Shown here in pieces: positions 3,968-17,557 of a stretch of DNA of 18,070 nt (within the stretch, counting starts at the first letter, position 1; the number at the start of each line of letters is the position of its first letter). The stretch spans positions 1 to 18,070 of IMG/VR virus record IMGVR_UViG_2660238548_000002; one strand, written 5' to 3'. Source of the stretch: a virus. Taxonomy: Duplodnaviria; Heunggongvirae; Uroviricota; Caudoviricetes. The notes beneath the pieces were generated by a model. The model did not search any database, was not told where the DNA came from, and saw nothing but the letters and a program-made list of their open reading frames with translations. The position numbers and the translations under genes were made by a program.

Positions 3968-5643
3968 TGTGATTGCCCACCCTGACCACTAACTGCATTC
4001 GCCATAGCTGACAAAACACTCGGATCCGAAGTTTTAGCTTCGCTTAGCGTCTTGGCCCCCTGTGCCGCCGCCATCCCCATCGCCATCATTTGTTGCTGCT
4101 GTTGCTGCTGTGCCCGTTGCTGGCGAGCCTGCTCAACCTGTTCCTGCGGAACAATGACGGTTGGAGACACTCCGGACATATCAGCGAATGCATCGATCGC
4201 CTGATCAACGTTGAGTTTGTCGAGAGCTTCTGGTTTCGCTTGCGCAAGTTGACCAATGAAGTTAACCGTGGACGCCAGACTGGACAGGCCGATAGACTTC
4301 TGCGCCTGAGCCATGACGGAAATGTATTCGACCTTCAGGGGCATGCCTTCCATCGCGTCAGGCGGTGGCGGCAGCATGTTTTTACGCACCATCATCGAGA
4401 AAGCGCGGTCAATGAGAGGATTAAGACATTCGTCGTTCAGACGCTCCAGAACCGGCCCCAACATCAGAAGTTTTTCTTCTTTCATTTCGATCACCGCTTC
4501 AACAGGCATCGAGCGGGTATTGATGTTCTGCAACATCATGAACAGATCGACAAAGTAGGCGCTGTTAATGATTTGACGAGTGTCCTGAATGTCTGCCACC
4601 AAATCTGCTGTACTGGGGTTAACCAGATAAGCAGGCCTGAAGCCATCCTGACCAGTAATCTGATCGATATACGTGATGTCGCCAGGAAGAAGGGAGGCGC
4701 GCTGATTCTTGAGGGAAGTCGGAGCAACCATCGGCGGATTGGTGGCTTTATCAATCAACTGCGACTTGCGCTTCTGGAGAAGCTGCAATGCCTTAACAGG
4801 TCCAAGCGCCAGCATGCCCGGGCATGATGATCCATAAACATCTTCACCGTTAACTTCCCAGCGCGGAGCCATAATTGGAAACTCATCGAATCCGGACTCA
4901 CGCAACAACTTGTCGTTATCGCCACCAACCTCGTAATAAACCGATTTGAATGGCTTGTTCTTGCTATCCAGCTTCGATGTATCGCGGTCAATGTTCGGGT
5001 AAACCGAATGCATCACGTCAATCCACTTCTCGTAGGTGCCGCTTTCCCACATGCTTTTTACGGATTCGCTGACGTTATTTAGCCCGAACTCCTGAACAAG
5101 CTGACGAACAGTCATAGAGAACTTGCGAAAACAGGTGTCAACACTGCCACGAGGTGAGTTAGCCAGGTAGTAACTGCCTATCGGGAATGGCATTGTGCGA
5201 ATGATGTCCTCATCATCCTCCAGTACCGCCATTGCACCGGTGCTGTATGTGCCGAGGCTTCCGTATAACTGCGGCAGCGACTGATAGAGATTCGACTTAT
5301 TGAACATATCGTTCATGCGGTTCTGCACCGCCTCAAGCCACAACTTAACAGGGCCATAATCCATCATTTCAGGATCTGGCGTAGCCAGGCGAAACCACGG
5401 ACGCGCAGGGCTTGTGATGCCTGACATCATGCCGCTGGCGAGAGTGCGCGCCGCCATAGTCCCGGTCGAATCAATAATGCGTGTATTGCGCCGATCGTTA
5501 CGGTTGGCCTCAGAAGTCAGAAAGCGGGAACCACGCGGGTTGATGTAATCACTCAACTCGCGCCAGTGCGGCTCGAACGACTGACGCTCGCTTTCAAGTT
5601 GTGCGAACTGTTTGTTCAATCGCTCTTTAGTTGTTTCCGCCAT
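3964..5643 (-). CDS. Portal protein, T7 gp8-like head-to-tail connector
   Basis: 559 aa. N-terminal region and the Gln/Ala/Met-rich C-terminal tail resemble recalled T7 gp8. Sits upstream of scaffold and capsid. Confidence 0.75.
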   Translation of the reverse strand: MAETTKERLNKQFAQLESERQSFEPHWRELSDYINPRGSRFLTSEANRNDRRNTRIIDSTGTMAARTLASGMMSGITSPARPWFRLATPDPEMMDYGPVKLWLEAVQNRMNDMFNKSNLYQSLPQLYGSLGTYSTGAMAVLEDDEDIIRTMPFPIGSYYLANSPRGSVDTCFRKFSMTVRQLVQEFGLNNVSESVKSMWESGTYEKWIDVMHSVYPNIDRDTSKLDSKNKPFKSVYYEVGGDNDKLLRESGFDEFPIMAPRWEVNGEDVYGSSCPGMLALGPVKALQLLQKRKSQLIDKATNPPMVAPTSLKNQRASLLPGDITYIDQITGQDGFRPAYLVNPSTADLVADIQDTRQIINSAYFVDLFMMLQNINTRSMPVEAVIEMKEEKLLMLGPVLERLNDECLNPLIDRAFSMMVRKNMLPPPPDAMEGMPLKVEYISVMAQAQKSIGLSSLASTVNFIGQLAQAKPEALDKLNVDQAIDAFADMSGVSPTVIVPQEQVEQARQQRAQQQQQQQMMAMGMAAAQGAKTLSEAKTSDPSVLSAMANAVSGQGGQSQ

Positions 5644-5657
5644 TTCAATGACTCCGG

Positions 5658-5864
5658 TTACTGACCAAGCAGCGTTTTACCGCTGGTATTAGCGGTTGAT
5701 GTGTCGCCCTGAGAACCGGTAAGAAGCGTAGAACTACGACCAGCAGCAGCGCGACGGCGACGTGTTTCTTCGTCGCGGGCATCAACAACGGCGGCATCCT
5801 GCTCCTGTGGTGCTGCCTGAACTTCTGGTGTTGCAGGCACTGATGGTGAGCTACCCATGCACAT
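5658..5864 (-). CDS. Small Ala/Gln/Arg-rich low-complexity protein (68 aa), possibly an internal virion protein
   Basis: ATG at 5864 with GGAG RBS; stop 12 nt before the portal RBS. Resemblance to T7 gp7.3 is from memory and weak. Confidence 0.4.
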   Translation of the reverse strand: MCMGSSPSVPATPEVQAAPQEQDAAVVDARDEETRRRRAAAGRSSTLLTGSQGDTSTANTSGKTLLGQ

Positions 5865-5932
5865 ATCAATGACTCCGTACGCAATTAAATTATTACCAAT
5901 TTAACCACAAATGATTTACCTATCGTAGATAG

Positions 5933-5969
5933 TTGACATTTAACGCACGAATTATTACCTTTCAGGTAA
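5933..5969 (+). promoter_or_regulatory. Candidate promoter (TTGACA at 5933..5938) with a perfect TTACC-N5-GGTAA palindrome at 5955..5969
   Basis: Perfect -35 hexamer, AT-rich -10 region, and a palindrome identical in form to those at the cI/cro region. Points toward the noncoding region and tRNA. Confidence 0.4.
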
Positions 5970-6029
5970 GCAAAGAGTTCATTCCGGTTATTAACCTGAC
6001 TAGCTTGTCGTTAAATTGAACAGGTGGGG

Positions 6030-6290
6030 TGAGATTTTATTTTGAGCAGTACGGCGTATGGCACATGCGCCGATAGCGGTCTGGATACGTTTAAGGGGCA
6101 CTCTCCCTTGCTCTGGCAAACGAACCAGGTAGCCGGGATGTGCAAGTCGAGCGGTTTTATTCCGCGCACGGGGATTCACCATCCCGGCGATTCGGTGTGA
6201 CACCTCGGAAGAGACGAGGGTACAACGATGAGAGCATTTATGGAACCGCGACAAAGTGTGGCGCCTTAACAGGCTAAGTGCTCTCAGCGT
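6030..6290 (+). ncRNA. Candidate structured noncoding RNA upstream of the tRNA (class unknown)
   Basis: No + strand ORF of 60 aa or more across 5885..6753. Contains a perfect 9-bp stem (GCCGGGATG 6131..6139 / CATCCCGGC 6180..6188) and several further hairpins. Confidence 0.25.
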
Positions 6291-6291
6291 T

Positions 6292-6368
6292 GTGGCATTA
6301 GCTCAGTTGGACAGAGCAACCGCCTTCTAAGCGGCTGGTCGCAGGTTCGAATCCTGCATGCCACGCCA
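6292..6368 (+). tRNA. tRNA-Arg (anticodon UCU), 77 nt with encoded CCA
   Basis: Manual fold: 7-bp acceptor stem GTGGCAT/ATGCCAC, D-arm GCTC...GAGC, anticodon loop CTTCTAA, T-arm GCAGG-TTCGAAT-CCTGC, discriminator G then CCA. Pair 27-43 is an A-C mismatch. Confidence 0.9.
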
Positions 6369-6411
6369 GAATCACGCCTAAGGACCGTGATGCCAGAAGT
6401 TCCAGGTGCTT

Positions 6412-6454
6412 GGCGGTGATGGTTTCCATTGAAGGACTATCACCGCCCTTTTTA
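6412..6454 (+). terminator. Intrinsic terminator downstream of the tRNA
   Basis: GGCGGTGAT ... ATCACCGCC stem followed by CTTTTTA. Confidence 0.5.
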
Positions 6455-6531
6455 CAGCAGGACGCCATTGCGATGACTTCATGCTGTAAACCCGTACAGC
6501 CACGGAAGGCATAACTCATTGCTTACAGTTC

Positions 6532-6555
6532 GCCCGGTTCACCGGGCATTTTTTT
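6532..6555 (+). terminator. Intrinsic terminator
   Basis: GCCCGG-TTCA-CCGGGC hairpin followed by ATTTTTTT. Confidence 0.7.
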
Positions 6556-6614
6556 AAGGTGTGAATCATGAAATACGAATTCGATGGATTTTAATGTCGT
6601 GACACGTCACAAAC

Positions 6615-6642
6615 AGCCAGCCGATAAGCTGGCTTTGTTTTA
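6615..6642 (+). terminator. Intrinsic terminator-like hairpin
   Basis: AGCCAGC-CGATAA-GCTGGCT followed by TTGTTTTA. Confidence 0.45.
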
Positions 6643-6697
6643 TCCTCATCAGAGGATATCAACGACATTATCCCCTCATAGGGATACGTTTTTCATA

Positions 6698-6726
6698 ATG
6701 ACCGAAGATTACCTTAAAGGTAGAAT
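6698..6726 (+). promoter_or_regulatory. Candidate promoter of the 246-aa gene (-10 TAGAAT at 6721..6726) overlapped by an operator-like palindrome TTACC-N5-GGTAG at 6709..6723
   Basis: -10 hexamer about 28 nt upstream of the ATG; a weak -35 (ATGACC) at 17-bp spacing; palindrome lies between them. Confidence 0.4.
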
Positions 6727-6753
6727 CAGAAAAAAACCTAAAAGGGCCTGGAC

Positions 6754-7494
6754 ATGCTTGAATCACTTAAAGAATACCTATCTTCAACCGTTAATACCGC
6801 TTCGCAAAGGGTCAGAAATCCAGTGTTTGGAGCGTTCGCACTGTCATGGTGCGCCTTTAACTGGAAGTCGATTTTATACTTACTCCTCAGCGACTCCAGC
6901 ATCATCGACAAGATCACCTACATTTCCAGCAATAGCAGTTGGAAAACGGTATTAGCATTCCCATGTGTTTCAGCAATAATCCTGTGCGGCGGCATGCCCT
7001 GGATCAACAACGTGATTTCAAAGTGGCAAGCCAAACCTCTTGATAATTACGATTCGATAGAGAACCACCGGAAGGCCAAGCGCATTCATCGCGCCACACG
7101 CCTGCAGCGCCTGAAGGCAAAGCACGATGTGACATACGACAAAGTTAAGACTGGCGCCGAAAAAGACATACAGGCTATGAAGGAAAGAATTACGGAGTCA
7201 CAGGCCAGGATGGGTGAGCTAACGTCGGAAAGAGATAGGCTCTCCGATAAGGTTTTGGAATTGAATAAGAAGCTGGAAAACATGCAATCAGTGGCTGCAG
7301 CGTTAAAGATTGAGGCAGAAAAGTCCGCCAGAATGCTTGAAGATAGGGAGGCCAAAATAAATAATCTCATACAAGAATTAAAGGAAAAAGAAAAGGAAAG
7401 TATCGTATTGCATATGGGCCATGAACCCTTGCGAAAAACATATACATCACAGGCTGAGAGAATGATTGCTGAAGCCGTGAAAAATAAGCAATAA
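6754..7494 (+). CDS. Orphan accessory protein: two predicted TM helices at the N-terminus, a basic linker and a long coiled-coil C-terminus (246 aa); function unknown
   Basis: Opposite strand to the late operon, visibly AT-rich, with many AGA/AGG Arg and ATA Ile codons. Its stop (7492..7494) lies 1 nt from the terL stop (7496..7498). Confidence 0.7.
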   Translation: MLESLKEYLSSTVNTASQRVRNPVFGAFALSWCAFNWKSILYLLLSDSSIIDKITYISSNSSWKTVLAFPCVSAIILCGGMPWINNVISKWQAKPLDNYDSIENHRKAKRIHRATRLQRLKAKHDVTYDKVKTGAEKDIQAMKERITESQARMGELTSERDRLSDKVLELNKKLENMQSVAAALKIEAEKSARMLEDREAKINNLIQELKEKEKESIVLHMGHEPLRKTYTSQAERMIAEAVKNKQ

Positions 7495-7495
7495 A

Positions 7496-8971
7496 TCACG
7501 CAAACGGGTCGTAATCTGTGATGGCCTTGCCTTGCTGGTTCTGCTGACCGGGAATTCGCAGGCGCTTCGACACAGGGAAAGCAAACGTCAGCAATAGCGC
7601 ATCGCCTTTCCCCGGCGAACGCCCAAGTCGTTCTTTGATATCTTCCTTCGGTTCGATAACGATTTTACCGTCCACGCGAACTTTGTACTCTGCCGTCGAC
7701 AGGTCGTCCGCTGTTTCCTGGTCATCCAGCATACCGCCCAGCCTCAGCCATGTCTTACATGAGTTGAACATCTCCCCACGCTTGTTGAGCATCTGCGGGT
7801 CAGTAGACGCGCCACCGAACGGAACAAGTTGCCATGTACGTCCCCAGCCATCACCGATTGACTTCAAACCGGTTCCGTAACCGAAGTCGATGAATACCGC
7901 GTCAGCCTGATACTTGTCTTCAAAGTCAGCGATGCGCTTCGCCATAATCAGATCGTCAGTGGTCTTGTTGCCAGTCCACAGCACCTTACTGTGCAGCCCC
8001 TGCCGCAGGTATATCACAGCGTCATCAACGCCGGAGTATGCCGGGTCAACGCCGATTATCACCGGAGCATGTGCCACCTGCGCAGCAGTTACCACCCGTT
8101 TCATTGCCTCGTCAGTAAGGCCGGTAGGGATAAACTGCAATTCAGATGCATCAGGGAATATGCCGCGCACACGGATTTTAACGAAGTCGCTGTCTTCCCC
8201 GTAGTCATCAACCCATTTCTGCAACTGCTGTTTGTTAGTGCCTTCCACCGTCCGGCTGTCAATCTGCGCAGTTTTCCAGCGGTGTTTATATTTGCGGAAA
8301 CATTCGCGGAAACGTCCGGTATTACGCGTCGGGTTTCCGAACGCCACCCAGATAATCTCAGTGTCTTCGTCCGTAAGCGCCCCCTCGGCAACTTCCCACA
8401 CCAGATCCGCAATGTTCGACGCTTCATCAAACACCACGATGATGCGTTTGCGCTCGTTGTGTAGTCCGGCGAATGCCTCGGTGTTGTGCTCAGACCAGGG
8501 GATTGCGTCAGCTCGCCACCGCTTGTCGTGCCCAGGATCATTGCTGTACATCGCGGTAGCGGTACAGGTAAACCAGTCTTTCGTGATAGCAAGGTTCGAC
8601 CACTTGATAATTTCCGGCCAGGTCTTCGTTCGTAGCTGGTTGTCGGTGTTGGCGGTCACCACGACCTTACAATCCTCGCAAGTGGACATGCCCCAGTTGA
8701 TCAGCATTGAGATGAATGCGGATTTACCAATACCGTGACCAGAAGCGCGTGCCAGCATAAGCGGCTGATAGCGCGTCTCTGGATTCTGCAGGTGATCACG
8801 TATCTCTCGGAACGCATCAGCCTGCCACTGACGTGGGCCGGTAGCATGTGCCAGTTCAGTCCCCTCTTCCCCCCAAGGGAACGCATAGAGGGCATAGCCA
8901 AGCGGATCGTGAGTGAACCCTGCAATATCCTCGATTAACTGCTCTTCAGGAGATAACGCTGTATCTGTCAC
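7496..8971 (-). CDS. Terminase large subunit
   Basis: 491 aa with Walker A-like SGHGIGKS near the N-terminus and a C-terminal nuclease-like region. GTG start overlaps the terS stop (GTGA); immediately downstream of terS. Confidence 0.85.
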   Translation of the reverse strand: MTDTALSPEEQLIEDIAGFTHDPLGYALYAFPWGEEGTELAHATGPRQWQADAFREIRDHLQNPETRYQPLMLARASGHGIGKSAFISMLINWGMSTCEDCKVVVTANTDNQLRTKTWPEIIKWSNLAITKDWFTCTATAMYSNDPGHDKRWRADAIPWSEHNTEAFAGLHNERKRIIVVFDEASNIADLVWEVAEGALTDEDTEIIWVAFGNPTRNTGRFRECFRKYKHRWKTAQIDSRTVEGTNKQQLQKWVDDYGEDSDFVKIRVRGIFPDASELQFIPTGLTDEAMKRVVTAAQVAHAPVIIGVDPAYSGVDDAVIYLRQGLHSKVLWTGNKTTDDLIMAKRIADFEDKYQADAVFIDFGYGTGLKSIGDGWGRTWQLVPFGGASTDPQMLNKRGEMFNSCKTWLRLGGMLDDQETADDLSTAEYKVRVDGKIVIEPKEDIKERLGRSPGKGDALLLTFAFPVSKRLRIPGQQNQQGKAITDYDPFA

Positions 8972-9564
8972 TGATTGCCATCCTGACGTTCTTTGAGTCG
9001 CTTCCTGGCTGCTGCTATGCGATCAGCAATTGTCACATTCACATTAACATCCAAGCGTTCTTTGAATGCGTTGACGTCGACGTGCTTACCAATCAGTTCG
9101 AGGTTCTTCACCTTGTCAGGCCATTTAATTTTTTTGAGGATTGTCTCTATCGAATCCTCGTTCATGTTCATGATGGTCGATGACAGATCAAAGCCGCTAA
9201 GCGTAGTGCGCCAGATTTTCGGCCACTCACGGATTGGTTTAAGGCTCCCATCGTCGTTGAGGATGTCGATCACGTCCATCTGGTCGATCTCCACTAGGCG
9301 CATGAGAACGTAATCAGCACTGACGCGCATTCGTTTGTTGCGCTCCTCCATCAACTCGGCAATCCGTTTTTGAATGCGTTCATCGCGCATCATGACACTG
9401 GCTTTAACTGCCGCTGTATTTGGGGAGAATCCTGCGTTAATCGCTGCCTGAGTCTGGTTTTCAGGCGTTTTGATGTATGACTGGCAATAAGCCTCCTGCA
9501 TTGCTGTGAGCGGCTTAAATTGCGTTGATTTGCGTTTATAGGTTTTAGGTTCAGCAGGCATCAT
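8968..9564 (-). CDS. Terminase small subunit
   Basis: Family-typical N-terminal LTAMQEAYCQSY...NAGFSPNTAAVKAS. Start placed at ATG 9564 (GGTGG upstream); the listed ORF's further extension (TITTTVTITT) runs through a terminator and repeats. Confidence 0.75.
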   Translation of the reverse strand: MMPAEPKTYKRKSTQFKPLTAMQEAYCQSYIKTPENQTQAAINAGFSPNTAAVKASVMMRDERIQKRIAELMEERNKRMRVSADYVLMRLVEIDQMDVIDILNDDGSLKPIREWPKIWRTTLSGFDLSSTIMNMNEDSIETILKKIKWPDKVKNLELIGKHVDVNAFKERLDVNVNVTIADRIAAARKRLKERQDGNQ

Positions 9565-9571
9565 AACCACC

Positions 9572-9602
9572 GTGGTAATAGTTACCGTTGTGGTAATAGT
9601 AA
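9572..9602. repeat. Two 13-bp direct repeats GTGGTAATAGT(T/A)A 18 bp apart, just upstream of the terS start
   Basis: Read directly from the sequence; the first copy forms the palindrome GGTAATAGTTACC. Candidate packaging or regulatory site. Confidence 0.5.
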
Positions 9603-9606
9603 CATG

Positions 9607-9633
9607 CAAAATAAAGCCGCCATAGTTGGCGGC
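9607..9633 (-). terminator. Intrinsic terminator immediately upstream of terS
   Basis: On the minus strand: GCCGCCA-ACTA-TGGCGGC followed by TTTATTTTG, in the 75-bp gap between the 70-aa gene and terS. Confidence 0.65.
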
Positions 9634-9638
9634 AGTAT

Positions 9639-9851
9639 TCAAAGTCCATCAAATTCATCGTAAAAACTCTCGTCAAGATACCCTTCCCATTTACCGCGAA
9701 TGAAAATTACATCCTCGCCGCAAGGGTGCTGACTGTCGATAACTATATCCCTCCTGGCGCAACCATACTTATGCATGAGAAATTTAACCTCTTTCGGAAA
9801 ATTTGCTGAGTTATCTCTCATATCTTCAAGGTCGTAGCGTATTTTTGGCAT
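9639..9851 (-). CDS. Hypothetical small protein (70 aa)
   Basis: ATG at 9851 with GAGGTG RBS directly upstream; the listed ORF extends to 9866. Confidence 0.5.
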   Translation of the reverse strand: MPKIRYDLEDMRDNSANFPKEVKFLMHKYGCARRDIVIDSQHPCGEDVIFIRGKWEGYLDESFYDEFDGL

Positions 9852-9867
9852 AACACCTCGTGACATG

Positions 9868-10206
9868 TCACACTATTAATTTCGTTTCATGCCAGCCTTT
9901 GGTCACCCAGCATTGCGAGTCACCATTACACGGGCATGAATTCACAGGAACTCTCTCGCCGCACTTACCGCAACGTTTTCTGCTGATCGATTTTATACGC
10001 CCGCGCACGCGTGCATCATCCTGGCGGATCAGTAACGCTATATACTCACCAAATTCGTAAGGCGCACGCCCGGGGCGACGTGTGGCACAGTTACGCTCCA
10101 GCATTTCAATTTCCTGAGCATCAAGCACAATCTCCAGCTTACGTACACCGGATTCAGCTTGTCTGGCTCTCTGAGCGGCTTTGCGCTCTGCTGCTGATTT
10201 AGCCAT
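9868..10206 (-). CDS. Hypothetical protein (112 aa) with a basic N-terminus and a C-terminal Cys4 zinc-ribbon (CGKCG...CPC)
   Basis: ATG at 10206, 2 nt after the upstream stop. Function unknown; a regulatory role is only a guess from position. Confidence 0.5.
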   Translation of the reverse strand: MAKSAAERKAAQRARQAESGVRKLEIVLDAQEIEMLERNCATRRPGRAPYEFGEYIALLIRQDDARVRGRIKSISRKRCGKCGERVPVNSCPCNGDSQCWVTKGWHETKLIV

Positions 10207-10480
10207 CAATATTCACCTTTATCGCGAACACCTTTACCGGTTTATCGCCGAAGTGGGGATGTGTGATTGTCTTGATTTCATATCCGTCATACGGAATATC
10301 AATTCTGCGGCTGGAATCGTCGCGCTTCGGATATCCCTTTGTGATAATCAGGCGGTCATACTCCCGGAACATAATTCGCTTATTCCAATAGTCATTACAC
10401 AGGCGATACTCCTCGGTTTTCTCGCCACGAATCATGGCATCGAAGTATTCACCTTTTACGGCAAGTTGCAGGTTAGCCAC
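10199..10480 (-). CDS. ASCH/DUF3850-like small protein (93 aa)
   Basis: GTG start with AGGAGG 7 nt upstream. N-terminal LQLAVKGEYFDAMIRGEKTEEYR resembles the recalled DUF3850/ASCH pattern. Confidence 0.45.
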   Translation of the reverse strand: MANLQLAVKGEYFDAMIRGEKTEEYRLCNDYWNKRIMFREYDRLIITKGYPKRDDSSRRIDIPYDGYEIKTITHPHFGDKPVKVFAIKVNIDG

Positions 10481-10757
10481 GACCTTCCTCCTTTGGCTTG
10501 TGAATTTGTATCGTCATGCCGCTTTGAGTGGTGACTACAATGACAGAACCAGGCTGAAGGCTGTTAAGATTGAATGCTTCGTAAAACGAATCCAATGCCA
10601 GTGCTTTTTTATTCTTTCGGTTCCACCAACGCCATCCCTTGCTACAGGCTACACTGACAATCCACTGCCCACTCCTGTAAGCCATATAAAACCAGATGAG
10701 CAAAACCTGAAGGAAGGCCATCCAGTCAATAATCGTATATTTCGCGAAGGAGTCCAT
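10473..10757 (-). CDS. Small membrane protein (94 aa) with one hydrophobic helix
   Basis: ATG at 10757 overlaps the upstream TGA (TGATG) and has a strong AGGAGGT RBS. Hydrophobic segment YTIIDWMAFLQVLLIWFYMAY. Confidence 0.55.
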   Translation of the reverse strand: MDSFAKYTIIDWMAFLQVLLIWFYMAYRSGQWIVSVACSKGWRWWNRKNKKALALDSFYEAFNLNSLQPGSVIVVTTQSGMTIQIHKPKEEGRG

Positions 10758-11329
10758 CAATTCACCTCCTGCGGCGGTTCTGGTAGCGGCATCCAGAACA
10801 AGACGTTCCCTAACCACGATAAAGTGCCGTCGCTCAACTCCACGTATTCCCCTTGTACCTGTCCTGCCATATACTCGCCGTGCTTTGAATAAATTAAAAT
10901 CCAATCATCTTGAGCGGGCATTCGCTCACTACAGCTTATCCAACCATCCGGAGTTACCGGAGAGTTGCCCGATAGCTCGTTCAACTTGTAAGTCTGGCTT
11001 ACAAGTTCGGCTTCCAATTCTGCTATGCGCTTCTCTGATGCTTCCAGCTCAACACGCAGCTTCCCTACCGTTAGCGCAATATCCTCGTTCTCCTGGTCGC
11101 GGCGTTTGATGTATTGCTGGTTTCTTTCCCGTTCATCCAGTAGTGCCAGCACGGTTTCTGGTCCGGCCAGAAGTTTGAAGGCGTTGAGCGCATCAATATC
11201 CACACCGTAATCTTTAAGTTCCTGTTCACTTAACAAATCATCATCAACTGGCAACATTAACAGGCGTTCCATTGCCGGAATTGCACGTTCTGCCGCCATT
11301 CGCAGTGCCTGATAGTCAATCTTGCTCAC
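10757..11329 (-). CDS. Ea22/Ead-like protein with a C-terminal DUF551-type domain (190 aa)
   Basis: GTG start with AAAGGAGG RBS. C-terminal W...FWMPLPEPP resembles the DUF551 signature common in lambdoid early regions. Confidence 0.5.
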   Translation of the reverse strand: MSKIDYQALRMAAERAIPAMERLLMLPVDDDLLSEQELKDYGVDIDALNAFKLLAGPETVLALLDERERNQQYIKRRDQENEDIALTVGKLRVELEASEKRIAELEAELVSQTYKLNELSGNSPVTPDGWISCSERMPAQDDWILIYSKHGEYMAGQVQGEYVELSDGTLSWLGNVLFWMPLPEPPQEVN

Positions 11330-11982
11330 TGGTTGCCTCCTTTTCGAAGCTCTGCGGCAAAGTCAGTGGCATGTTCACCGAGTAGTTTCCAGTTATCGCG
11401 TATATCAGATGCAAATGACTGTTCGGATTTTGAGTTACATTTCTGTGCAAACATCTCCAATCCCTGCGCCCGCACTTCAGCCAGGCATTTGCGAAACTCG
11501 GAAACGTACTGTTCGACGCTCATTCCCCAGCTAAGTGGACATTCATTGAATGTTTCGCCTTCGTGCTCTTCATCAGGTAGCTCTTTGGTAAAGAACTCAC
11601 GCTCAATGGCGTGGAGTGTGTCAGCAAAACGACGTAAGTTACTCAAACCTACCGTAATGGAGAATTCAGGAGCATCACATCCGACGCCCATCTGCTGATA
11701 AACGGCGGTTTTGAAGGCCTTCAGCGCCGCATTCTCCGCTGCCAGCTCCGAAAACTTCTCGTGTGCCAACTTAACAGCTGCATCAGCCTGCTTAATTGAC
11801 TCAATCGCTTTCTGCTGGTCTTCGGCCAGCGCATTAGCACGCACCAGTTGCACTTCCAGTTGCGTTGCCAAATCGCTGATCAGCTTTGCCACGCTGCGCA
11901 TATCAACGGCACCACATTCTGCTTTCAGTTCCGAAGCCATCTCATGCCCGGCGGTAACTAACCCTTTGATATTACAGTCCAT
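11326..11982 (-). CDS. Hypothetical coiled-coil protein (218 aa)
   Basis: ATG at 11982 with GAGGG RBS. No recognisable domain. Confidence 0.5.
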   Translation of the reverse strand: MDCNIKGLVTAGHEMASELKAECGAVDMRSVAKLISDLATQLEVQLVRANALAEDQQKAIESIKQADAAVKLAHEKFSELAAENAALKAFKTAVYQQMGVGCDAPEFSITVGLSNLRRFADTLHAIEREFFTKELPDEEHEGETFNECPLSWGMSVEQYVSEFRKCLAEVRAQGLEMFAQKCNSKSEQSFASDIRDNWKLLGEHATDFAAELRKGGNQ

Positions 11983-12027
11983 CTTTACCCTCGCTTATCC
12001 ACATAACTTATTGATTACATTGATAAC

Positions 12028-12055
12028 TAAAAAGATCGTCGATTCATGCCGATCT
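12028..12055 (-). terminator. Possible intrinsic terminator overlapping the HNH gene stop
   Basis: AGATCG ... CGATCT stem flanked by an A-tract and a T-tract; the 11-nt loop makes it weak. Confidence 0.3.
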
Positions 12056-12652
12056 ATTTTTCATCAGTGATTCATAAAACTTTTGCCACTTATGCCGACC
12101 GAAATTAGCCTTCGAGTTACAGCTCGAACAAAGGCAAATAAGGTTCTCCTGACGACAGTCTTGCTTGTCGTAATTGATGTGATGAGTTGTTAGCCTTTTG
12201 TCTGTTCCATCACAACCTGGGTTCTGACAAGTAAAACCATCTCGCTCAATAACCCTCTTGCTCGTTTCTCGGAAATCCCACGGATACGGCAATCTCGATA
12301 ATCCACCAGACCAGTTTGGATTTCCTTCCCCCTTCATCAGAGAAGAACGCATTATGTTGGAACACTGTTTCGAGCAGCATTTATGACGCTTCTCATGACT
12401 CAAGAAAACGGAGAACGAAGATCCGCATACGCAGCATATTTTTAATACTCGCTTTAGTTCCCGATTTACCGTCTTGCCTCGCTGTGAAATTCCTACACAC
12501 TGAAGTGAGCAGAACCTTGAAGATGAGTTGGCTCGCTTAACCTGATATTGCCTGCCACATACGGGGCAAACCTTTTCGATTTTCCCACCCTTCCAATTCG
12601 GGTTTTTATCACCGGATACAATCAATCCCGCAGCATTGGGCTTCTCGCTCAT
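12044..12652 (-). CDS. HNH homing-type endonuclease with duplicated NPNW(K/S)GG modules (202 aa)
   Basis: C-terminal HHINYDK...ENLICLCSSCN is an HNH motif; two NPNWxGG repeats. AT-rich. ATG at 12652 overlaps the upstream stop (ATGA). Confidence 0.8.
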   Translation of the reverse strand: MSEKPNAAGLIVSGDKNPNWKGGKIEKVCPVCGRQYQVKRANSSSRFCSLQCVGISQRGKTVNRELKRVLKICCVCGSSFSVFLSHEKRHKCCSKQCSNIMRSSLMKGEGNPNWSGGLSRLPYPWDFRETSKRVIERDGFTCQNPGCDGTDKRLTTHHINYDKQDCRQENLICLCSSCNSKANFGRHKWQKFYESLMKNRSA

Positions 12653-13002
12653 AGTTCCTCAACCTCCCATCCACCACCGAGCTTTTTAGGTTTTGGATAA
12701 GCAACCTGAAAGACAAACGGATAGCTGTCTGCCGCAACCTTCATCTTGACTCTCGCATCGTCAGTAAAGACTGACTTACTTCCCTTAACGTCCACCATCA
12801 CCAACTGCCCGTCAGCCAACATCACGGCAAAATCTACAGTCAGGAAGCAGTTGTCAGCCAGCCGCAGCTTGATACCCTCGAACCGATACCAGGCGACTTC
12901 CCCTGCACGTTTACGCTGCTCAAGGTGCTGGCAATACGCAGATTCTGTTTTGTTCATCTGGCCTGTTTTGAGTCGACCAAGAGCCTGTATCTGTTTTCTC
13001 AT
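12649..13002 (-). CDS. DUF1064-like phage protein (117 aa)
   Basis: Pattern ...YRFEGIKLRLADNCFLTVDFAVM...VDVKG resembles recalled DUF1064. Translationally coupled to the HNH gene. Confidence 0.45.
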   Translation of the reverse strand: MRKQIQALGRLKTGQMNKTESAYCQHLEQRKRAGEVAWYRFEGIKLRLADNCFLTVDFAVMLADGQLVMVDVKGSKSVFTDDARVKMKVAADSYPFVFQVAYPKPKKLGGGWEVEEL

Positions 13003-13005
13003 GAT

Positions 13006-13082
13006 TTACCTCTAAGGTAATTAAAAACCACATAAGGCACAAAATCAATAGATCTAAGAATATTTTGTTACCCATTGGGTAA
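13006..13082. promoter_or_regulatory. Two perfect TTACC-N5-GGTAA palindromes (13006..13020 and 13068..13082) upstream of the DUF1064 gene
   Basis: The first palindrome starts 4 nt upstream of the ATG and contains the RBS; the second lies about 60 bp further upstream. Confidence 0.5.
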
Positions 13083-13119
13083 TTATTGAGGCGTAAAAAA
13101 ATGCGCTATCGCGCTGGTA

Positions 13120-13920
13120 TTACTTGATAAATCCTGCTGCCTTTCCTCGCCTGTATTCCTCCATCAGCCACTGCGCCGGTGTTATTCCCCCCAGGGTGGC
13201 GGCGTTAGGCATGCACCCGAAACTTCGCCCTGGTGGATGGTAAACGTCTCTCCCTGTGTCCGGAGGTGTACTCATGGGTTCTGGCTTTGCCTGTATGCTG
13301 ATCACCGGATCGGGTATCTGCTGTCCGGAAGCCACCTTTTTCGCCCAATCATCGAGCAACCTGCGCGCGTGTTTCTCAACCTCAATCTCGCTAAGCTGGC
13401 GCTGATACATTGCACGGCGGGTATCACATACGACCCAGTACATAACCGGATGTCGCCACGGGAATCTTTCGGGACCACCAGGATATAAACTTTTTTCCTT
13501 GCTGTACCGGTGAAACTCCGCCATCACATCGTCAATGGTGACGCCAAGAACCATCTTGCTGTCTTTACACCACTTGATGAATTGCCCTGGCGACGGCCAG
13601 AACGGAGATTCACTGGCGCGGGCGTGGCGCATACCAGCAGAAACCTGTTCACGGGTTCGGATCCCCCCTTCGGCAAACGCAGCAATCCACTGCTGTTTTG
13701 CAGCAACTTCCTGCTCTGGCGTCTTCAGGTTGGTTACCACTGCCGCCGGAAACAGTTGTTTCAGCTGTTTGAAAAGGGCATCAACAAGCCTCTCTGCTGA
13801 CATGTTCACCACGTTGTCATTGTTGGTGTACTGATGCTCATAACCTGACATGCGAGAAAGGGCTTCTCCGTCACGGTTTTGTATCGCGGTAAAAACGTTG
13901 TTCACAAGAAATCCTCCCAT
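13120..13920 (-). CDS. Lambda P-like replication protein (helicase loader)
   Basis: Central QWIAAFAEGGIRTREQVSAGMRHAR...PFWPSPGQFIKWC aligns with the recalled lambda P region RRQWVLAFRENGITTMEQVNAGMRVAR...PFLPSPGQFVAWC. Strong GGAGGA RBS. Confidence 0.8.
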   Translation of the reverse strand: MGGFLVNNVFTAIQNRDGEALSRMSGYEHQYTNNDNVVNMSAERLVDALFKQLKQLFPAAVVTNLKTPEQEVAAKQQWIAAFAEGGIRTREQVSAGMRHARASESPFWPSPGQFIKWCKDSKMVLGVTIDDVMAEFHRYSKEKSLYPGGPERFPWRHPVMYWVVCDTRRAMYQRQLSEIEVEKHARRLLDDWAKKVASGQQIPDPVISIQAKPEPMSTPPDTGRDVYHPPGRSFGCMPNAATLGGITPAQWLMEEYRRGKAAGFIK

Positions 13921-14717
13921 GCTTCAGGGCTGTTCCAGTGCGGAACGTTGTTATCAGGTAATGTTGATTGCTTCTGTCTGCTAATCTGCAGCCGCCTTGC
14001 CAGCTTCTGCTCCCACTGTGCCTGATGGTATGCCTTACCCTCAGCCATCCAGTAAATTCTGAACTCTGCAAGTTCCTGTGCCGTTGGCAGACTGTCCAGG
14101 TAGATCCCCTGCAATGAGCTTTTCCGAAGAAAGTCATCTGATGGTTGCCATTGTTCATGCATGACAAATTTGCCTAATTGCCCTGGCCCACCAGGAGGAA
14201 CAAAGTTATTCATCACGGCGTTGTTTGCGCCGGGGTCATGAGGCACAGAATCCCCGGTTTTTGTTCTGCTCTCCCTCTCTTGGTTAAATGACTGGTTATA
14301 TGACTGGTTCTGGATCCCGTTTTTGGGATCATTCAACATCCCGTTTTTGGGATCATTCAACATCCCGTTTTTGGGTATATTCCCGTTTTCGGTAACATTA
14401 CCGTTTTCGGGTTCATTACCCCCTTCCCGGTTGCCTTTAATGTTCCCGTTTTTGGTTATATTAAGAGAGAAAACCCGCACTCTTTTCGTCGCTCCCTTTC
14501 TCTCTCCGGTATCTGAAATAAGCCCCATTTTCATGAGCGATATAAGCCCGGACTGCACGGTTTTTTTATTCAGGCAAGTGTCTTTAACGAGGCGTTCTAT
14601 GCTGGGGTAGCAGAGGTTATATTCATCGGCTCTGTCAGCCATCGAGAGCAGTATGAGCTTTAATGATGAGCTACCTGGGTCTGTCTCCCAGGCCCAATCT
14701 GTTGCATGTCTGCTCAT
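13902..14717 (-). CDS. Replication initiator, O-like (N-terminal HTH, repeat-encoded linker)
   Basis: Lies upstream of and overlapping the P-like gene; iterons are embedded in the coding sequence and encode the tandem KNGMLNDP repeat. Confidence 0.65.
   Translation of the reverse strand: MSRHATDWAWETDPGSSSLKLILLSMADRADEYNLCYPSIERLVKDTCLNKKTVQSGLISLMKMGLISDTGERKGATKRVRVFSLNITKNGNIKGNREGGNEPENGNVTENGNIPKNGMLNDPKNGMLNDPKNGIQNQSYNQSFNQERESRTKTGDSVPHDPGANNAVMNNFVPPGGPGQLGKFVMHEQWQPSDDFLRKSSLQGIYLDSLPTAQELAEFRIYWMAEGKAYHQAQWEQKLARRLQISRQKQSTLPDNNVPHWNSPEAWEDFL
14314..14460. repeat. Origin-type iterons: two perfect 24-bp tandem copies (ATCCCGTTTTTGGGATCATTCAAC) plus about 4 degenerate copies of the CCCGTTTT(T)GG core
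   Basis: Read directly from the sequence. Each unit contains an ATCCC/GGGAT inverted repeat; the array lies inside the O-like gene as in lambda ori. Confidence 0.75.
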
Positions 14718-14732
14718 GATTAATCTCCGCTA

Positions 14733-14933
14733 TCAGCTTGAATGTTGTGGGGAGGAATTAATCATGATCTGCTTAATCTCTGCCCTGATGCGACGGTTTG
14801 ATTCCATGGTGCACTCAACACAGTGTCCGTTGTAAACCCAGCGTTCACTGTCATGTCCGTGCTTACATGATTTTCCGGTGTAGTAGCGTTTAAGTCCGCG
14901 CTTTGCGGCATCAATACGTGTAATGATTTCCAT
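14733..14933 (-). CDS. Small Cys/His-rich zinc-finger protein (66 aa) in the cII position
   Basis: ATG at 14933; motif CKHGHD...HCVEC. Sits between the cro-like gene and the O-like gene; function unknown. Confidence 0.4.
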   Translation of the reverse strand: MEIITRIDAAKRGLKRYYTGKSCKHGHDSERWVYNGHCVECTMESNRRIRAEIKQIMINSSPQHSS

Positions 14934-15037
14934 GGTAAGCCCTGTTATTAGTATTGGGATTACGGTTATTTTGTGCTGACACAAAAAAAAGATCAACCAG
15001 ATTTGGTTTTTTATTACCTTTAAGGTGCGAATAGATA

Positions 15038-15061
15038 TGAAAAGACCGCAGGATGGCGGTC
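15038..15061 (-). terminator. tR1-like intrinsic terminator downstream of the cro-like gene
   Basis: On the minus strand: GACCGC-CATCCT-GCGGTC followed by TTTTC. Position matches lambda tR1. Confidence 0.4.
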
Positions 15062-15083
15062 TACAGAGGTTTGTGGCTGGATA

Positions 15084-15314
15084 TCATGAGTAGAAGAAGT
15101 ATGCCAGTTCTGCTTTTGAGCGCAGCCATTGTCTTGTTTTACAGGCTTTAAAAAGCCCATTCATCAATACTTTACCTGGCATTTTGCGCTTACCTGTTAA
15201 GTGAGTCTGGATATAGTGACTCGTCGTTCCGGCTTCCTGTGCGAAGGCTTCACGCTCATCCGGAGTAAGTGCAAGCCAGTGCTTTTTGAAATCGAAATGT
15301 CCGTTATCGCTCAT
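15084..15314 (-). CDS. Cro-like HTH regulator (76 aa)
   Basis: Divergent from the repressor gene and first gene of the rightward-equivalent operon. HTH-like segment LTPDEREAFAQEAGTTSHYIQ. Confidence 0.6.
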   Translation of the reverse strand: MSDNGHFDFKKHWLALTPDEREAFAQEAGTTSHYIQTHLTGKRKMPGKVLMNGLFKACKTRQWLRSKAELAYFFYS

Positions 15315-15350
15315 AGCTATTGCCTGATATTTATTTCAGATAATAAATAT

Positions 15351-15413
15351 TCACCCATAAGGTAACAAAAATCAAGGATAGTTACCTATGGGGTGCATTT
15401 ACCTGTTGGGTAA
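15351..15413. promoter_or_regulatory. Divergent immunity promoter region with three operator-like sites (15351..15365, 15382..15396, 15399..15413)
   Basis: Lies between the divergent cro-like and cI-like starts. Three TTACC-N5-GGTAA family palindromes, echoing an OR1-OR3 layout. Confidence 0.6.
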
Positions 15414-15468
15414 TATTGCTTTAAATTGAATCATCTACTGATTCATATATGAGGCGATTCTCCAGAAA

Positions 15469-16053
15469 ATGAAAAGTATCCAGGACGTCCGCAGGCAAAA
15501 TCTCAACGACTTGATCGACCGTGAATTCAATGGTGTTCAGACGCGGATGGCAGAAAAACTTGGAACTCAGGCAAATCTGGTAAACCGCTGGGCTCTTGGC
15601 AAGAAGGTTATCGGCGACCAGGTTGCGCGAAAAATTGAAGCTGCCGCCAATAAACCCCGTAACTGGCTTGATATCGATCGCTCGCTTTCTCAGGAGGGGT
15701 TTCAGCCTGTCGGCCCAAGCGACATTGGTCAGCTGGCGGCTCACAACCTGGAACGCTGGATGAGCGAAAGCCGCGACCTTTCAACACAGGGAAAACTTCA
15801 CCGCGCATCCGGCGTCGCCCAGGTGACAATCAGCCGCCTGTTAAACAATGAGGTCAGTGTTTCCATTTCCACCCTGGAGAATGTTGCATCCGCATTCGGG
15901 CGTCACGGATATGAACTACTGATTCACCCGCACGACCCTGCGACTATCAACTATGACCGCTCGCGCTACGCATTGTTACCCGAAACCGAGAAAGCAAAGA
16001 TCGAAAGTTACATTGAATTTGTCATCAACCAGAACGAAAAAAACAAACAATAA
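15469..16053 (+). CDS. CI-like repressor with two HTH (XRE-type) domains and no S24 peptidase domain (194 aa)
   Basis: Two HTH-like segments (residues about 20..60 and 95..150). Divergent from cro and followed by a strong terminator. Confidence 0.65.
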   Translation: MKSIQDVRRQNLNDLIDREFNGVQTRMAEKLGTQANLVNRWALGKKVIGDQVARKIEAAANKPRNWLDIDRSLSQEGFQPVGPSDIGQLAAHNLERWMSESRDLSTQGKLHRASGVAQVTISRLLNNEVSVSISTLENVASAFGRHGYELLIHPHDPATINYDRSRYALLPETEKAKIESYIEFVINQNEKNKQ

Positions 16054-16075
16054 AATCATATTTTTCAGTAAGTAA

Positions 16076-16097
16076 GCCGCCTTCTGGCGGCTTTTTT
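16076..16097 (+). terminator. Intrinsic terminator after the repressor gene
   Basis: GCCGCC-TTCT-GGCGGC followed by TTTTTT. Confidence 0.85.
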
Positions 16098-16110
16098 ATT
16101 GCCTGTTCAA

Positions 16111-16187
16111 TTACCTAATGGGTAATTTTTTTAACTCATATCTATTGACATCAAACCAGATACGCATAATTATTACCTAAACGGTAA
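16111..16187 (+). promoter_or_regulatory. pL-like early promoter (TTGACA at 16145..16150) flanked by two perfect TTACC-N5-GGTAA operators (16111..16125 and 16173..16187)
   Basis: Perfect -35 hexamer and AT-rich -10 region; one operator upstream and one overlapping the start region, upstream of the + strand early genes. Confidence 0.55.
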
Positions 16188-16206
16188 CAGACCGAGGTAA
16201 CAAGTT

Positions 16207-16359
16207 ATGCAGTGGAAAATCATCAACGGTTGGTACTGCGTTACTGCATGCGGATTCATGAGCTGGAAGTTCCGCACCTTACAGGAAGGCATTAAGTGGG
16301 CTTTCGTCAGCAAAGAAGCTCGCGATGTGGCCAACGATAACGAGATATGGGAGGGATGA
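16207..16359 (+). CDS. Small Trp/Cys-rich protein (50 aa), first ORF of the leftward-equivalent early operon
   Basis: ATG at 16207 with GAGG upstream; below the ORF-track size cutoff, translated by hand as MQWKIINGWYCVTACGFMSWKF... Confidence 0.35.
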   Translation: MQWKIINGWYCVTACGFMSWKFRTLQEGIKWAFVSKEARDVANDNEIWEG

Positions 16360-16361
16360 TA

Positions 16362-16661
16362 ATGAACGTTAATCAGCAGAAAAATCTTCAAAAAATCATG
16401 CTGGCATTCGACAAGGACTACCGCCTGTCAGAACAGCTATATGACCGACAAGTTGAACTGATTGAGAGTATCCGGCTTCACCAACTGGCCTCAACTTTCG
16501 ACGTTGTAACAGGCAAAGGCGTTCGTCAGGAAGTGCTGGAGGCTGCTAAAGACAGCCCTGAGTTCGAAGAACTGATGGATGCCTACCGGCGCGAGGCAAT
16601 GGCAATTATCGCCCGCTGGGATCTGGCGGATCGGATTGATGGGCAGAGGGAAGCGGCATGA
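16362..16661 (+). CDS. Hypothetical early protein (99 aa)
   Basis: ATG at 16362 with GGAGGG 6 nt upstream; stop overlaps the exonuclease start (ATGA). The listed ORF starts at 16347. Confidence 0.55.
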   Translation: MNVNQQKNLQKIMLAFDKDYRLSEQLYDRQVELIESIRLHQLASTFDVVTGKGVRQEVLEAAKDSPEFEELMDAYRREAMAIIARWDLADRIDGQREAA

Positions 16662-17557
16662 TGCAGAACGCTGGAATCATGGATAGAACAAAATACATCG
16701 GAGGAAGCGATGTTGCAGGGATTCTTGGAATTAGCCCATGGCGCACCCCGCTTGAGGTTTATCTGGATAAGGTCAAGCCACGTGTCAAACCAGTAGACCC
16801 AAGCAAGCAGAAAGTTTTCACGCGTGGCCAGCGTATGGAGCCATACGTAATAGACCTGCTTTCTGAGGAAACAGGGATGGAAATCGTTCATCGCGGAAAC
16901 CGCTATATCCACCGTGATTACGATTTTATTGCAGCTGAGATCGATGCAGAAGCAGCGTCAGGCGAGAACATTGAGATCAAAACAGTTAGTCCGTTCAAAG
17001 CCAAAGAATGGGGAGAAATCCAGACAGATGCAATTCCTGTGCATTACACGGCCCAGGCCATGCACGGGTTGATGGTTACAAACAAACAGGCATGCGTTTT
17101 CGGTGTGCTTATCGGTGGTGACGACTTCCGAATCTATCGGGTTGAGCGTGATGAAGAAACTATCCAGGCGATCTTAGAAAAAGAAATCGCTTTCTGGGAC
17201 CGAGTGAAAAATCTTAACCCGCCGGAAGCTACCAGCGTAAGCGATGTATCGCTGATGTTTGAGAAAGATGCCGGGACAAGTATCGAGGCTGACGGAAAGG
17301 CACTCGCACTATTCAACGATCTACGAGACATGAAGTCACGCAGAAAATCACTGGAAGAAGAAATAGCTATATCAGAAGAGAAGCTGAAGATGTACATGCA
17401 AGAGCACTCAGTCCTGACCCTGGACGGAAAGCCGCTCTGCACATGGAAATCTCAGATCAGCAACAGATTCGACCAGAAGCTATTCCAGTCAGTACACCCT
17501 GAGTTATTCGAAAAATTCAAAACAACAACGACACAACGCGTCTTCAGAATGAAGTAA
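16658..17557 (+). CDS. YqaJ-type viral recombination exonuclease
   Basis: N-terminal YIGGSDVAGILGISPWRTPLEVY matches the YqaJ signature. Immediately upstream of a RecT-family gene. Confidence 0.8.
   Translation: MMQNAGIMDRTKYIGGSDVAGILGISPWRTPLEVYLDKVKPRVKPVDPSKQKVFTRGQRMEPYVIDLLSEETGMEIVHRGNRYIHRDYDFIAAEIDAEAASGENIEIKTVSPFKAKEWGEIQTDAIPVHYTAQAMHGLMVTNKQACVFGVLIGGDDFRIYRVERDEETIQAILEKEIAFWDRVKNLNPPEATSVSDVSLMFEKDAGTSIEADGKALALFNDLRDMKSRRKSLEEEIAISEEKLKMYMQEHSVLTLDGKPLCTWKSQISNRFDQKLFQSVHPELFEKFKTTTTQRVFRMK

Follow-up and report, generated by a model that had tools for sequence, protein, structure and literature searches.

A short palindrome, TTACC-N5-GGTAA, recurs at the immunity promoters and at accessory and late-region units of a tailed virus (IMG/VR record IMGVR_UViG_2660238548_000002), which raises the question of which protein recognises it and which transcription units it controls. 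The DNA analysed, hereafter the window, is 18,070 nucleotides long and, by synteny and nucleotide identity, is part of a phiV10/epsilon15-like (Uetakevirus) prophage of E. coli: between 12900 and 16700 it is 98% identical to phiV10, with the same gene order. Prophages of this type were found in 561 of 5426 complete E. coli genomes (~10%). From the evidence below, the palindrome is very probably the operator of the prophage repressor Rep, present at nearly every promoter, through which Rep would directly silence the units concerned, accessory and late ones included.

A palindrome restricted to intergenic DNA

An unbiased scan ranked TTACC-N5-GGTAA as the commonest 5+5 palindrome of the window, phiV10, epsilon15, BUCT711 and Tyrion, and its extended consensus is ATTACC-nnWnn-GGTAAT. 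Seven perfect copies were observed in the window versus 0.01 expected from 200 shuffles, the same order as the ~0.02 estimated in the first-pass annotation, and 10 sites had at most one mismatch (seven perfect, three with one mismatch; 0.28 expected). The motif scan recovered the six perfect copies listed in that annotation (5955, 13006, 13068, 15399, 16111 and 16173) and one that it had overlooked (9582-9596). Its one-mismatch list was right for 6709 and 15351 and lacked 9564-9578, while 15014-15028 and 15382-15396 turned out to have two mismatches (GGTGC for GGTAA); relatives hold a site at both of these positions. Equal frequency in coding DNA had been put forward as an argument against an operator. 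We found the opposite: our gene model leaves 13.3% of the window non-coding, and in it none of the 12 sites, the two-mismatch ones included, has a single base within a gene.

Up to two mismatches, ~4.5 hits are expected by chance in the window, and eight further two-mismatch hits (5159, 8104, 8724, 8867, 9691, 10046, 11577 and 15190), which lie in coding DNA, were judged to be chance matches. Everted half-sites, also proposed earlier, were dropped as artefacts: the copy at 9574-9586 is the junction of the tandem canonical sites 9564 and 9582, and that at 14391-14402 consists of two neighbouring replication iterons (gap of 2 versus 3 bases). Some sites can also be read as TACCT-N3-AGGTA, which resembles the MqsA box, a lead given no weight here.

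Operator placement in the immunity region

Rep (194 aa, 15469..16053, + strand) and a Cro-like helix-turn-helix protein (76 aa, 15084..15314, - strand), a possible second binder of the operators, are encoded on either side of three sites, as had been described. The OR3-like operator (15399..15413, perfect) overlaps the proposed rep promoter TTACCT-17-TAAATT (15399-15427, +). At 17 bp from it lies the OR2-like operator (15382..15396), whose position holds a perfect copy in epsilon15, SPC32H and the Klebsiella and Citrobacter relatives. The OR1-like operator (15351..15365, one mismatch, TCACC) overlaps the spacer and the -10 of the cro-like gene's rightward promoter (-35 TTGATT, 15375-15370, -). 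The Cro-like protein is 76% identical to epsilon15 gp39, its helix-turn-helix is invariant across phiV10, epsilon15 and SPC32H, and it matches phrog_35, "transcriptional repressor" (E=5.6e-13). Just past the cro terminator (15062-15043) comes the weak site 15014..15028, 17 nt upstream of the promoter TTGATC-17-CAAAAT of the next early gene (14996-14968, -); its homologue has one mismatch in phiV10, Tyrion, BUCT711 and UTME-9.

The pL-like promoter, TTGACA-17-AATTAT (16145..16173, +; 10/12 matches, with -35 and -10 invariant in the alignment), reads into the 50-aa, 104-aa and recE-like genes and is bracketed by two perfect operators, again in line with the earlier description. The distal one (16111..16125), placed after the rep terminator (16074-16093), stops 19 nt short of the -35, and the proximal one (16173..16187) runs from the last T of the -10 over the transcription start; their centres are 62 bp apart.

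The middle promoter, terS and the accessory units

The same arrangement was found at the middle promoter, TTGATT-17-TTTAAT (13020..13048, -), which was read by eye, is conserved in the alignment and leads into the DUF1064, HNH and downstream early genes. Its distal operator (13068..13082, perfect), located beyond the terminator that follows replication gene P, stops 19 nt short of the -35. The proximal operator (13006..13020, perfect), 62 bp away, extends from the final base of the -10 to a point 3 nt short of the DUF1064 ATG (13002) and includes the ribosome-binding site.

Upstream of terS the motif is present, as had been noted, in the form of canonical tandem operators rather than the everted form then assigned. 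The first (9582..9596, perfect) is separated by 19 nt from the preceding terminator stem (9633-9616); the second (9564..9578, one mismatch), 18 bp from the first, is directly upstream of the conserved terS ATG (9561) and contains the ribosome-binding site GGTGG. We found no convincing sigma-70 promoter between terminator and terS in the window, phiV10, epsilon15, SPC32H or Tyrion.

Two further sites are associated with accessory units. The perfect operator 5955..5969, between the gp3/portal operon (-) and the tRNA unit (+), overlaps the -10 of a conserved promoter, TTGACA-17-TACCTT (5933-5961, +), and downstream of this promoter and a 326-nt leader lies tRNA-Arg(TCT) (6292..6368, +), the sole Rfam match in the window. 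In the direction of gp3/portal, the sigma-70 search gave nothing convincing. The site 6709..6723 (one mismatch, GGTAG) overlaps both spacer and -10 of the promoter ATGACC-17-TAGAAT (6698-6726, +) of the 246-aa accessory gene (6754-7494). BUCT711 and EC.W1-9 carry a 246-aa cassette with the same operator and promoter layout. Because the operator is retained in three diverged cassette alleles, the other two being just 65% and 41% identical, silencing of accessory cassettes by Rep is supported.

Conservation in related phages and prophages

A motif scan of relatives had been suggested as a check, and it bore out the proposal: TTACC-N5-GGTAA was the top-ranking palindrome in 11 relatives (phages and prophages of seven genera), at homologous positions. 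The spacing of the pairs at the pL and middle promoters was 61-63 bp in all 12 sequences (the window plus the 11 relatives), and in the alignments the operators and the -35/-10 hexamers were unchanged while the flanks had diverged. In whole genomes of relatives, sites also occur at the tail, lysis and integrase regions; the complete UTME-9 prophage (98% identical) has 12 perfect and 6 one-mismatch sites, which reach every promoter-bearing intergenic region.

The closest precedent is epsilon15, whose record (GenBank AY150271.2) labels the same palindrome "protein_bind: repressor", a label that may itself be a prediction. The labelled sites are at terS, gp3/portal, the tailspike gene, pL and the middle promoter, and all but the tailspike position are matched by sites in the window. 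Epsilon15 has 11 perfect copies of the identical palindrome at the same locations, including between rep and gp39, with the same 62-bp pairs and 17/30-bp cluster. It differs in having three pL sites versus two in the window, and the repressors are 43% identical; conversely, the middle rep-cro site is degenerate in the window, and the extra operator at the 246-aa cassette is missing from epsilon15. The epsilon15 annotation and the conservation support the main reading of the first-pass annotation, an immunity-repressor operator perhaps shared with the Cro-like protein. The control that it had suggested over accessory and late-region units gains support from the epsilon15 sites before terS, gp3/portal and tailspike and from the retained cassette operator.

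A search of the literature in full text gave no match to the operator sequences and no relevant paper on Uetakevirus operators. The epsilon15 repressor sites were reportedly annotated by Kropinski et al. in 2007.

The repressor Rep

Rep is 100% identical to phiV10 gp40 and 42-43% identical to the Rep proteins of SPC32H and epsilon15. A phmmer comparison with 5D50_A (SPC32H Rep) aligned residues 1-190 of 194 (E=4e-42), so that homology covers the full length: the N-terminal helix-turn-helix, the middle and the C-terminal tetramerisation/Ant-binding domains. Pfam returned helix-turn-helix families only and no S24 peptidase domain. The protein is thus an immunity repressor, as first described, but not of the lambda-cI type then assumed: judged by its sequence it is of the SPC32H type, which would be inactivated by an antirepressor, unlike lambda CI. 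The lysis-lysogeny switch formed by Rep and Ant in SPC32H is said to have been worked out by Kim and Ryu in 2013 and Kim et al. in 2016 (PDB 5D50, 5D4Z). The Ant of phiV10 shares 88% identity with that of SPC32H and has a LexA box upstream (L001, 20822-20837); in the prophage analysed here the antirepressor gene would lie outside the window. SPC32H thus shares with the window a full-length homologous repressor and the same motif at the same places, and differs in the moderate Rep identity and in that the window itself lacks the antirepressor gene.

Secondary accounts describe SPC32H Rep as binding palindromic DNA as a tetramer (PMC9638917) and its tetramerisation domain as a type associated with DNA looping (PMC9986798). 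When the identical repressor of ZX5 was overexpressed, holin and endolysin transcripts fell by more than 99.9% (PMC9782041). This fall was possibly indirect.

Alternative binders and functions

An improbable alternative is that the dispersed sites are bound chiefly by the Cro-like protein, which would lower expression of early, accessory and late units during lytic growth, with Rep confined to the immunity region. Operators common to Cro and CI are the rule among lambdoid phages, and the invariant helix-turn-helix and the PHROG match would fit such a role. Conservation cannot tell the two proteins apart, since the Cro-like protein is equally conserved. The same applies to comparison with distant homologues: the motif is kept in all enterobacterial relatives with the (N/T)LVNRW repressor helix (NLVNRW in Rep, invariant in the alignment) and was not found near distant Rep relatives with a different helix; around those related at the N-terminus, from Paraburkholderia, Hydrogenovibrio and Thiomicrospira, we found neither the motif nor a clear alternative palindrome. 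This co-absence is a negative correlation only and does not separate Rep from Cro. Nor was a scan of viral contigs with the Rep alignment of use for covariation, because all repressors it returned were 100% identical. What speaks for Rep is that the epsilon15 annotators assigned the sites to the repressor, that a lysogen needs every unit silenced, and that the 62-bp pairs suit the kind of protein that Rep is reported to be, a tetramer having two units for DNA binding, whereas a small Cro is expected to be a dimer.

Some of the sites could instead act as roadblocks or clamps against readthrough, in the manner of stoperators, rather than by promoter occlusion, a reading that we consider rather unlikely and that concerns the terS sites (9564, 9582) and the post-terminator sites 13068, 15014 and 16111. 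Four sites or site pairs do lie 9-19 nt past a terminator stem or T-tract, and the interval before terS lacks a detectable sigma-70 promoter in the five sequences named above, yet an activator-dependent late promoter may exist there. Besides, the sites are palindromic and have no orientation specificity, and those at the pL and middle promoters keep a fixed 19 nt to the -35 and 62 bp to the proximal partner, which points to promoter control. It is hardly credible, finally, that the palindrome is a site for an Enterobacterales host factor or a module boundary promoting recombination, with no specific link to the repressor. The motif is identical in phages of Escherichia, Salmonella, Klebsiella, Enterobacter, Citrobacter, Erwinia and Scandinavium while Rep identity drops to 41%, and exchangeable cassettes are flanked by sites; against this, the Rep DNA-binding domain, especially the (N/T)LVNRW helix, is conserved wherever the motif occurs, and placement over -10 and +1 and in a tripartite cluster between rep and cro is operator-like. 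The host DNA flanking the UTME-9 prophage (~7 kb) contains a single one-mismatch hit versus 18 inside, and we know of no E. coli regulator with a TTACC-N5-GGTAA consensus.

Proposed mechanism and comparison with known systems

For Rep as the binder, we infer that it binds the sites, loops the paired ones and represses from those in the late region. Rep, as a repressor of the SPC32H/epsilon15 type, has an N-terminal helix-turn-helix and C-terminal domains for dimerisation and tetramerisation. With 10 bp between the half-site centres, a pair of DNA-binding domains would reach consecutive major grooves along the same face of the helix. At pR and the 246-aa-gene promoter, bound Rep would cover spacer and -10; at the tRNA unit it would cover the -10, and at the pL and middle promoters the start of transcription. 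With a second operator 62 bp (~six helical turns) upstream, one Rep tetramer could hold both sites, leaving the promoter in a small loop. Single operators at several places fit a two-site tetramer less neatly. The three-site cluster would form a lambda-like switch between rep and the cro-like gene, with rep autoregulated. Since the operators lie on promoter cores, Rep in a lysogen would directly silence every lytic unit, among them the tRNA-Arg unit, the 246-aa accessory gene and terS with the late region, and induction would proceed via a LexA-controlled antirepressor encoded outside the window. More tentatively, and we think it possible but doubtful, Rep may be a genome-wide silencer that forms ~62-bp loops at the pL and middle promoters, so that incoming cassettes must carry or evolve operators and the terS sites serve as post-terminator roadblocks. 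The 61-63 bp spacing in 12 of 12 sequences and the operator-tagged cassettes are compatible with this reading and are not proof of it.

As in lambda CI/Cro, divergent repressor and cro-like genes in the window are separated by three operators, which overlap the promoters of both; the window also has an operator-bearing leftward promoter and probably a 17-bp palindromic site for a dimeric helix-turn-helix unit. Unlike in lambda, Rep has no S24 autocleavage domain, the pL sites bracket the promoter 62 bp apart instead of being adjacent, and the operators are scattered genome-wide, not limited to the immunity region in combination with a late antiterminator. One repressor acting through many dispersed operators to silence most units is also the pattern of P1 C1, the mycobacteriophage L5 gp71 stoperators and RP4 KorA. 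The proteins are unrelated, however. P1 and L5 sites are asymmetric, and L5 stoperators work in a single orientation from within transcribed regions; the sites in the window are symmetric, intergenic and associated with promoters.

The sites in the window are an ordinary new instance of an already known feature, as the same sites are annotated in epsilon15, and they alter no open question, because the principle is recorded for that phage and the repressor family has a solved structure. For the prophage, tRNA-Arg and the 246-aa gene probably belong to the lytic phase and not to lysogenic conversion. The result is an operator map for a common type of E. coli prophage, which helps the annotation and engineering of phiV10-type reporter phages.

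Distribution of the TTACC-N5-GGTAA palindrome

Positions 12900-16700 of the window share 98% identity with Escherichia phage phiV10, a member of the genus Uetakevirus, and similar DNA is present in 561 of the 5426 complete E. coli genomes. The window's genes run in the phiV10 and epsilon15 order, in reverse. The head genes, portal (3964-5643), gp3 (5658-5864), terL (7496-8971), terS, the early-right genes, the replication P and DnaT-like genes and the cro-like gene (15084-15314) lie on the minus strand, and the repressor gene rep (15469-16053) and the leftward recombination genes on the plus strand. In strain UTME-9, a complete prophage with 98% identity was found at the guaA 3' end.

The palindrome TTACC-N5-GGTAA occurs seven times without mismatch in the window, against 0.01 expected from shuffled sequences, and ten times when up to one mismatch is allowed (0.28 expected). 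It ranked first among all 5+5 palindromes in an unbiased scan applied alike to the window and four relatives. The six perfect sites listed by the first-pass annotation (first bases 5955, 13006, 13068, 15399, 16111 and 16173) had exact coordinates; its list had missed a perfect site at 9582-9596 and a one-mismatch site at 9564-9578, and the sites at 15014 and 15382, which it gave as one-mismatch variants, have two mismatches each. Together with those at 6709 and 15351, all 12 sites lie wholly within non-coding DNA, which makes up 13.3% of the window in the gene model made here. Pooling 54 perfect sites from six genomes gave the 17-bp consensus ATTACC-nnWnn-GGTAAT, with A or T at the central base in 98% of them.

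Two reported "everted" arrangements of the half-sites had other origins: the one at 9574-9586 is simply the junction of two tandem terS operators, and the one at 14391-14402, with a different gap, is produced by two adjacent iterons in the array at 14314-14466. This array, inside the DnaT-like gene, holds six iterons of the form (A/T)TCCCGTTTT(T/C)GG spaced by 24, 24, 18, 18 and 45 bp, and is probably the replication origin. An additional 12-bp tandem pair is located at 14281-14304.

Sites overlap or bracket promoters

In alignments of the window, phiV10, epsilon15 and SPC32H, operators and promoter hexamers were invariant while their flanks had diverged. At the leftward promoter pL (TTGACA-17-AATTAT, 16145-16173), the first base of the proximal operator is the last T of the -10, and the distal operator, 3' of the rep terminator, ends 19 nt upstream of the -35. 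The same design was found at the middle promoter after replication gene P (TTGATT-17-TTTAAT, 13048-13020, minus strand), whose proximal operator includes a ribosome-binding site and ends 3 nt upstream of the DUF1064 start codon. Both pairs are spaced by 62 bp in the window, and each of the 12 sequences examined has a spacing of 61-63 bp at the two promoters. The set comprised the window, phiV10, epsilon15, SPC32H, Tyrion, BUCT711, UTME-9, and prophages of Erwinia, Klebsiella, two Citrobacter species and Scandinavium.

Three sites separate rep from the cro-like gene. Site 15351 covers spacer sequence and the -10 of the rightward promoter, whose -35 is TTGATT at 15375-15370, and site 15399 overlaps TTACCT-17-TAAATT, a conserved candidate promoter for rep. 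In between is site 15382, which has a degenerate sequence in the phiV10 lineage and no mismatch in epsilon15 and SPC32H. Site 15014, 3' of the cro terminator, precedes a TTGATC-17-CAAAAT promoter by 17 nt. In the operator over the rightward promoter (15351-15365 and its homologues), one half-site is always TCACC instead of TTACC; the side that carries it is the opposite one in epsilon15-lineage as compared with phiV10-lineage phages. TCACC is also found in the operator before the lysis genes in four of the five relatives having that site. As read from these sequences, this recurrence suggests selection for a weaker operator variant.

Sites outside the immunity region

Site 6709 covers the -10 of an ATGACC-17-TAGAAT promoter ahead of a 246-aa gene (6754-7494; phrog_4780, function unknown) that occupies a variable slot; this allele is present in only five of 5426 E. 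coli genomes. Homologues in Klebsiella phage BUCT711 (65% identity) and phage EC.W1-9 (41%) retain the operator over the -10 of a GTGACT-17-TAxxxT promoter, with two mismatches in BUCT711 and none in EC.W1-9. The protein has a hydrophobic N-terminus followed by a long charged coiled coil, and its remaining matches are weak, coiled-coil ones to defence-system proteins (LmuB, JetC).

The UTME-9 prophage carries 12 perfect and six one-mismatch sites, in every promoter-bearing intergenic region, including those adjoining the BRO-N and YafO cassettes, the lysis genes and the integrase gene. In the flanking host DNA (about 7 kb) there was a single one-mismatch match. This spread and the kept operators of the 246-aa cassette support, at the level of sequence, the earlier proposal that the repressor would also control units beyond the immunity region.

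A conserved promoter on the plus strand (TTGACA-17-TACCTT), whose -10 overlaps site 5955, leads via a 326-nt leader to tRNA-Arg(TCT). This untranslated leader (5966-6291) had no Rfam match; it folds better than shuffled sequences (z = -3.06), and in epsilon15 the corresponding region is annotated with an RNase III site. AGA codons, read by this tRNA, are concentrated in early and accessory genes of the window (seven in the DnaT-like gene, five in the 246-aa gene) and nearly absent from head and portal genes. On the minus strand, the ~90 bp from this operator to the gp3 start codon (5865-5954) are almost invariant across phiV10, epsilon15 and SPC32H, with unrelated DNA on the other flank; no convincing late-operon sigma-70 promoter was seen in this segment upstream of gp3/portal.

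The terS start codon, ATG at 9561, is conserved with epsilon15, SPC32H and Tyrion (197 aa, GGTGG upstream), so both terS operators are intergenic. Both are 3' of a terminator, the second includes the terS ribosome-binding site, and no sigma-70 promoter was seen at either. The longest terS ORF, from TTG at 9642 (8968-9642, 224 aa) and annotated likewise in phiV10, is probably too long.

Probable assignment of the sites to the repressor

The epsilon15 GenBank record labels the same sequences "protein_bind, repressor, lysogeny" before terS, gp3/portal and the tailspike gene, three times at pL and once at the middle promoter. The window's repressor, Rep, has the same sequence as phiV10 gp40 and shares 43% identity with the epsilon15 and SPC32H proteins, and its residues 1-190 match the solved SPC32H Rep (PDB 5D50; E=4e-42). 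HTH was the only domain found in Rep, with no autocleavage domain detected. NLVNRW, the presumed recognition helix, is invariant. Both an (N/T)LVNRW helix and the motif are retained in five further enterobacterial prophages, whose Rep identity goes down to 41%, and distant N-terminal-domain relatives that have SIVNQH or TQVSRL in its place are without the motif. In phage ZX5, overexpression of the identical repressor abolished free phage and lowered holin and endolysin transcripts by >99.9% (PMC9782041). Antirepressor Ant is 88% identical between phiV10 and SPC32H, whereas identity of its target repressor is only 42-43%. In the phiV10 segment compared (20543-20837), CTGTATAAATACACAG, a LexA box, lies directly upstream of ant.

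Taken as a sequence-based assignment, the sites are likely Rep operators. According to secondary literature, SPC32H Rep is a tetramer that binds palindromic sites with DNA-binding pairs drawn from different dimers (PMC9638917), and its C-terminal domain resembles the tetramerisation domains of DNA-looping regulators (PMC9986798). Rep tetramers would sit on operators overlapping or bracketing each promoter, and we infer that each 62-bp pair (~six helical turns) is probably looped, bridged by one tetramer. The Cro-like protein, whose HTH is also invariant and matches phrog_35, may share these operators with Rep; conservation does not discriminate between the two proteins. The terS and post-terminator sites could act as roadblocks instead of occluding promoters. 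The palindrome is unlikely to be bound by a host factor or to serve purely as a recombination boundary, since sites are placed over promoter cores and the motif is tied to the Rep helix.

The genus's type phage already has this motif on record, as dispersed sites assigned to the repressor, and structural work has characterised the repressor family. What this analysis adds is at the level of the instance: a corrected site list, the promoter geometry, the conserved 61-63 bp pairing and an operator-tagged accessory cassette.
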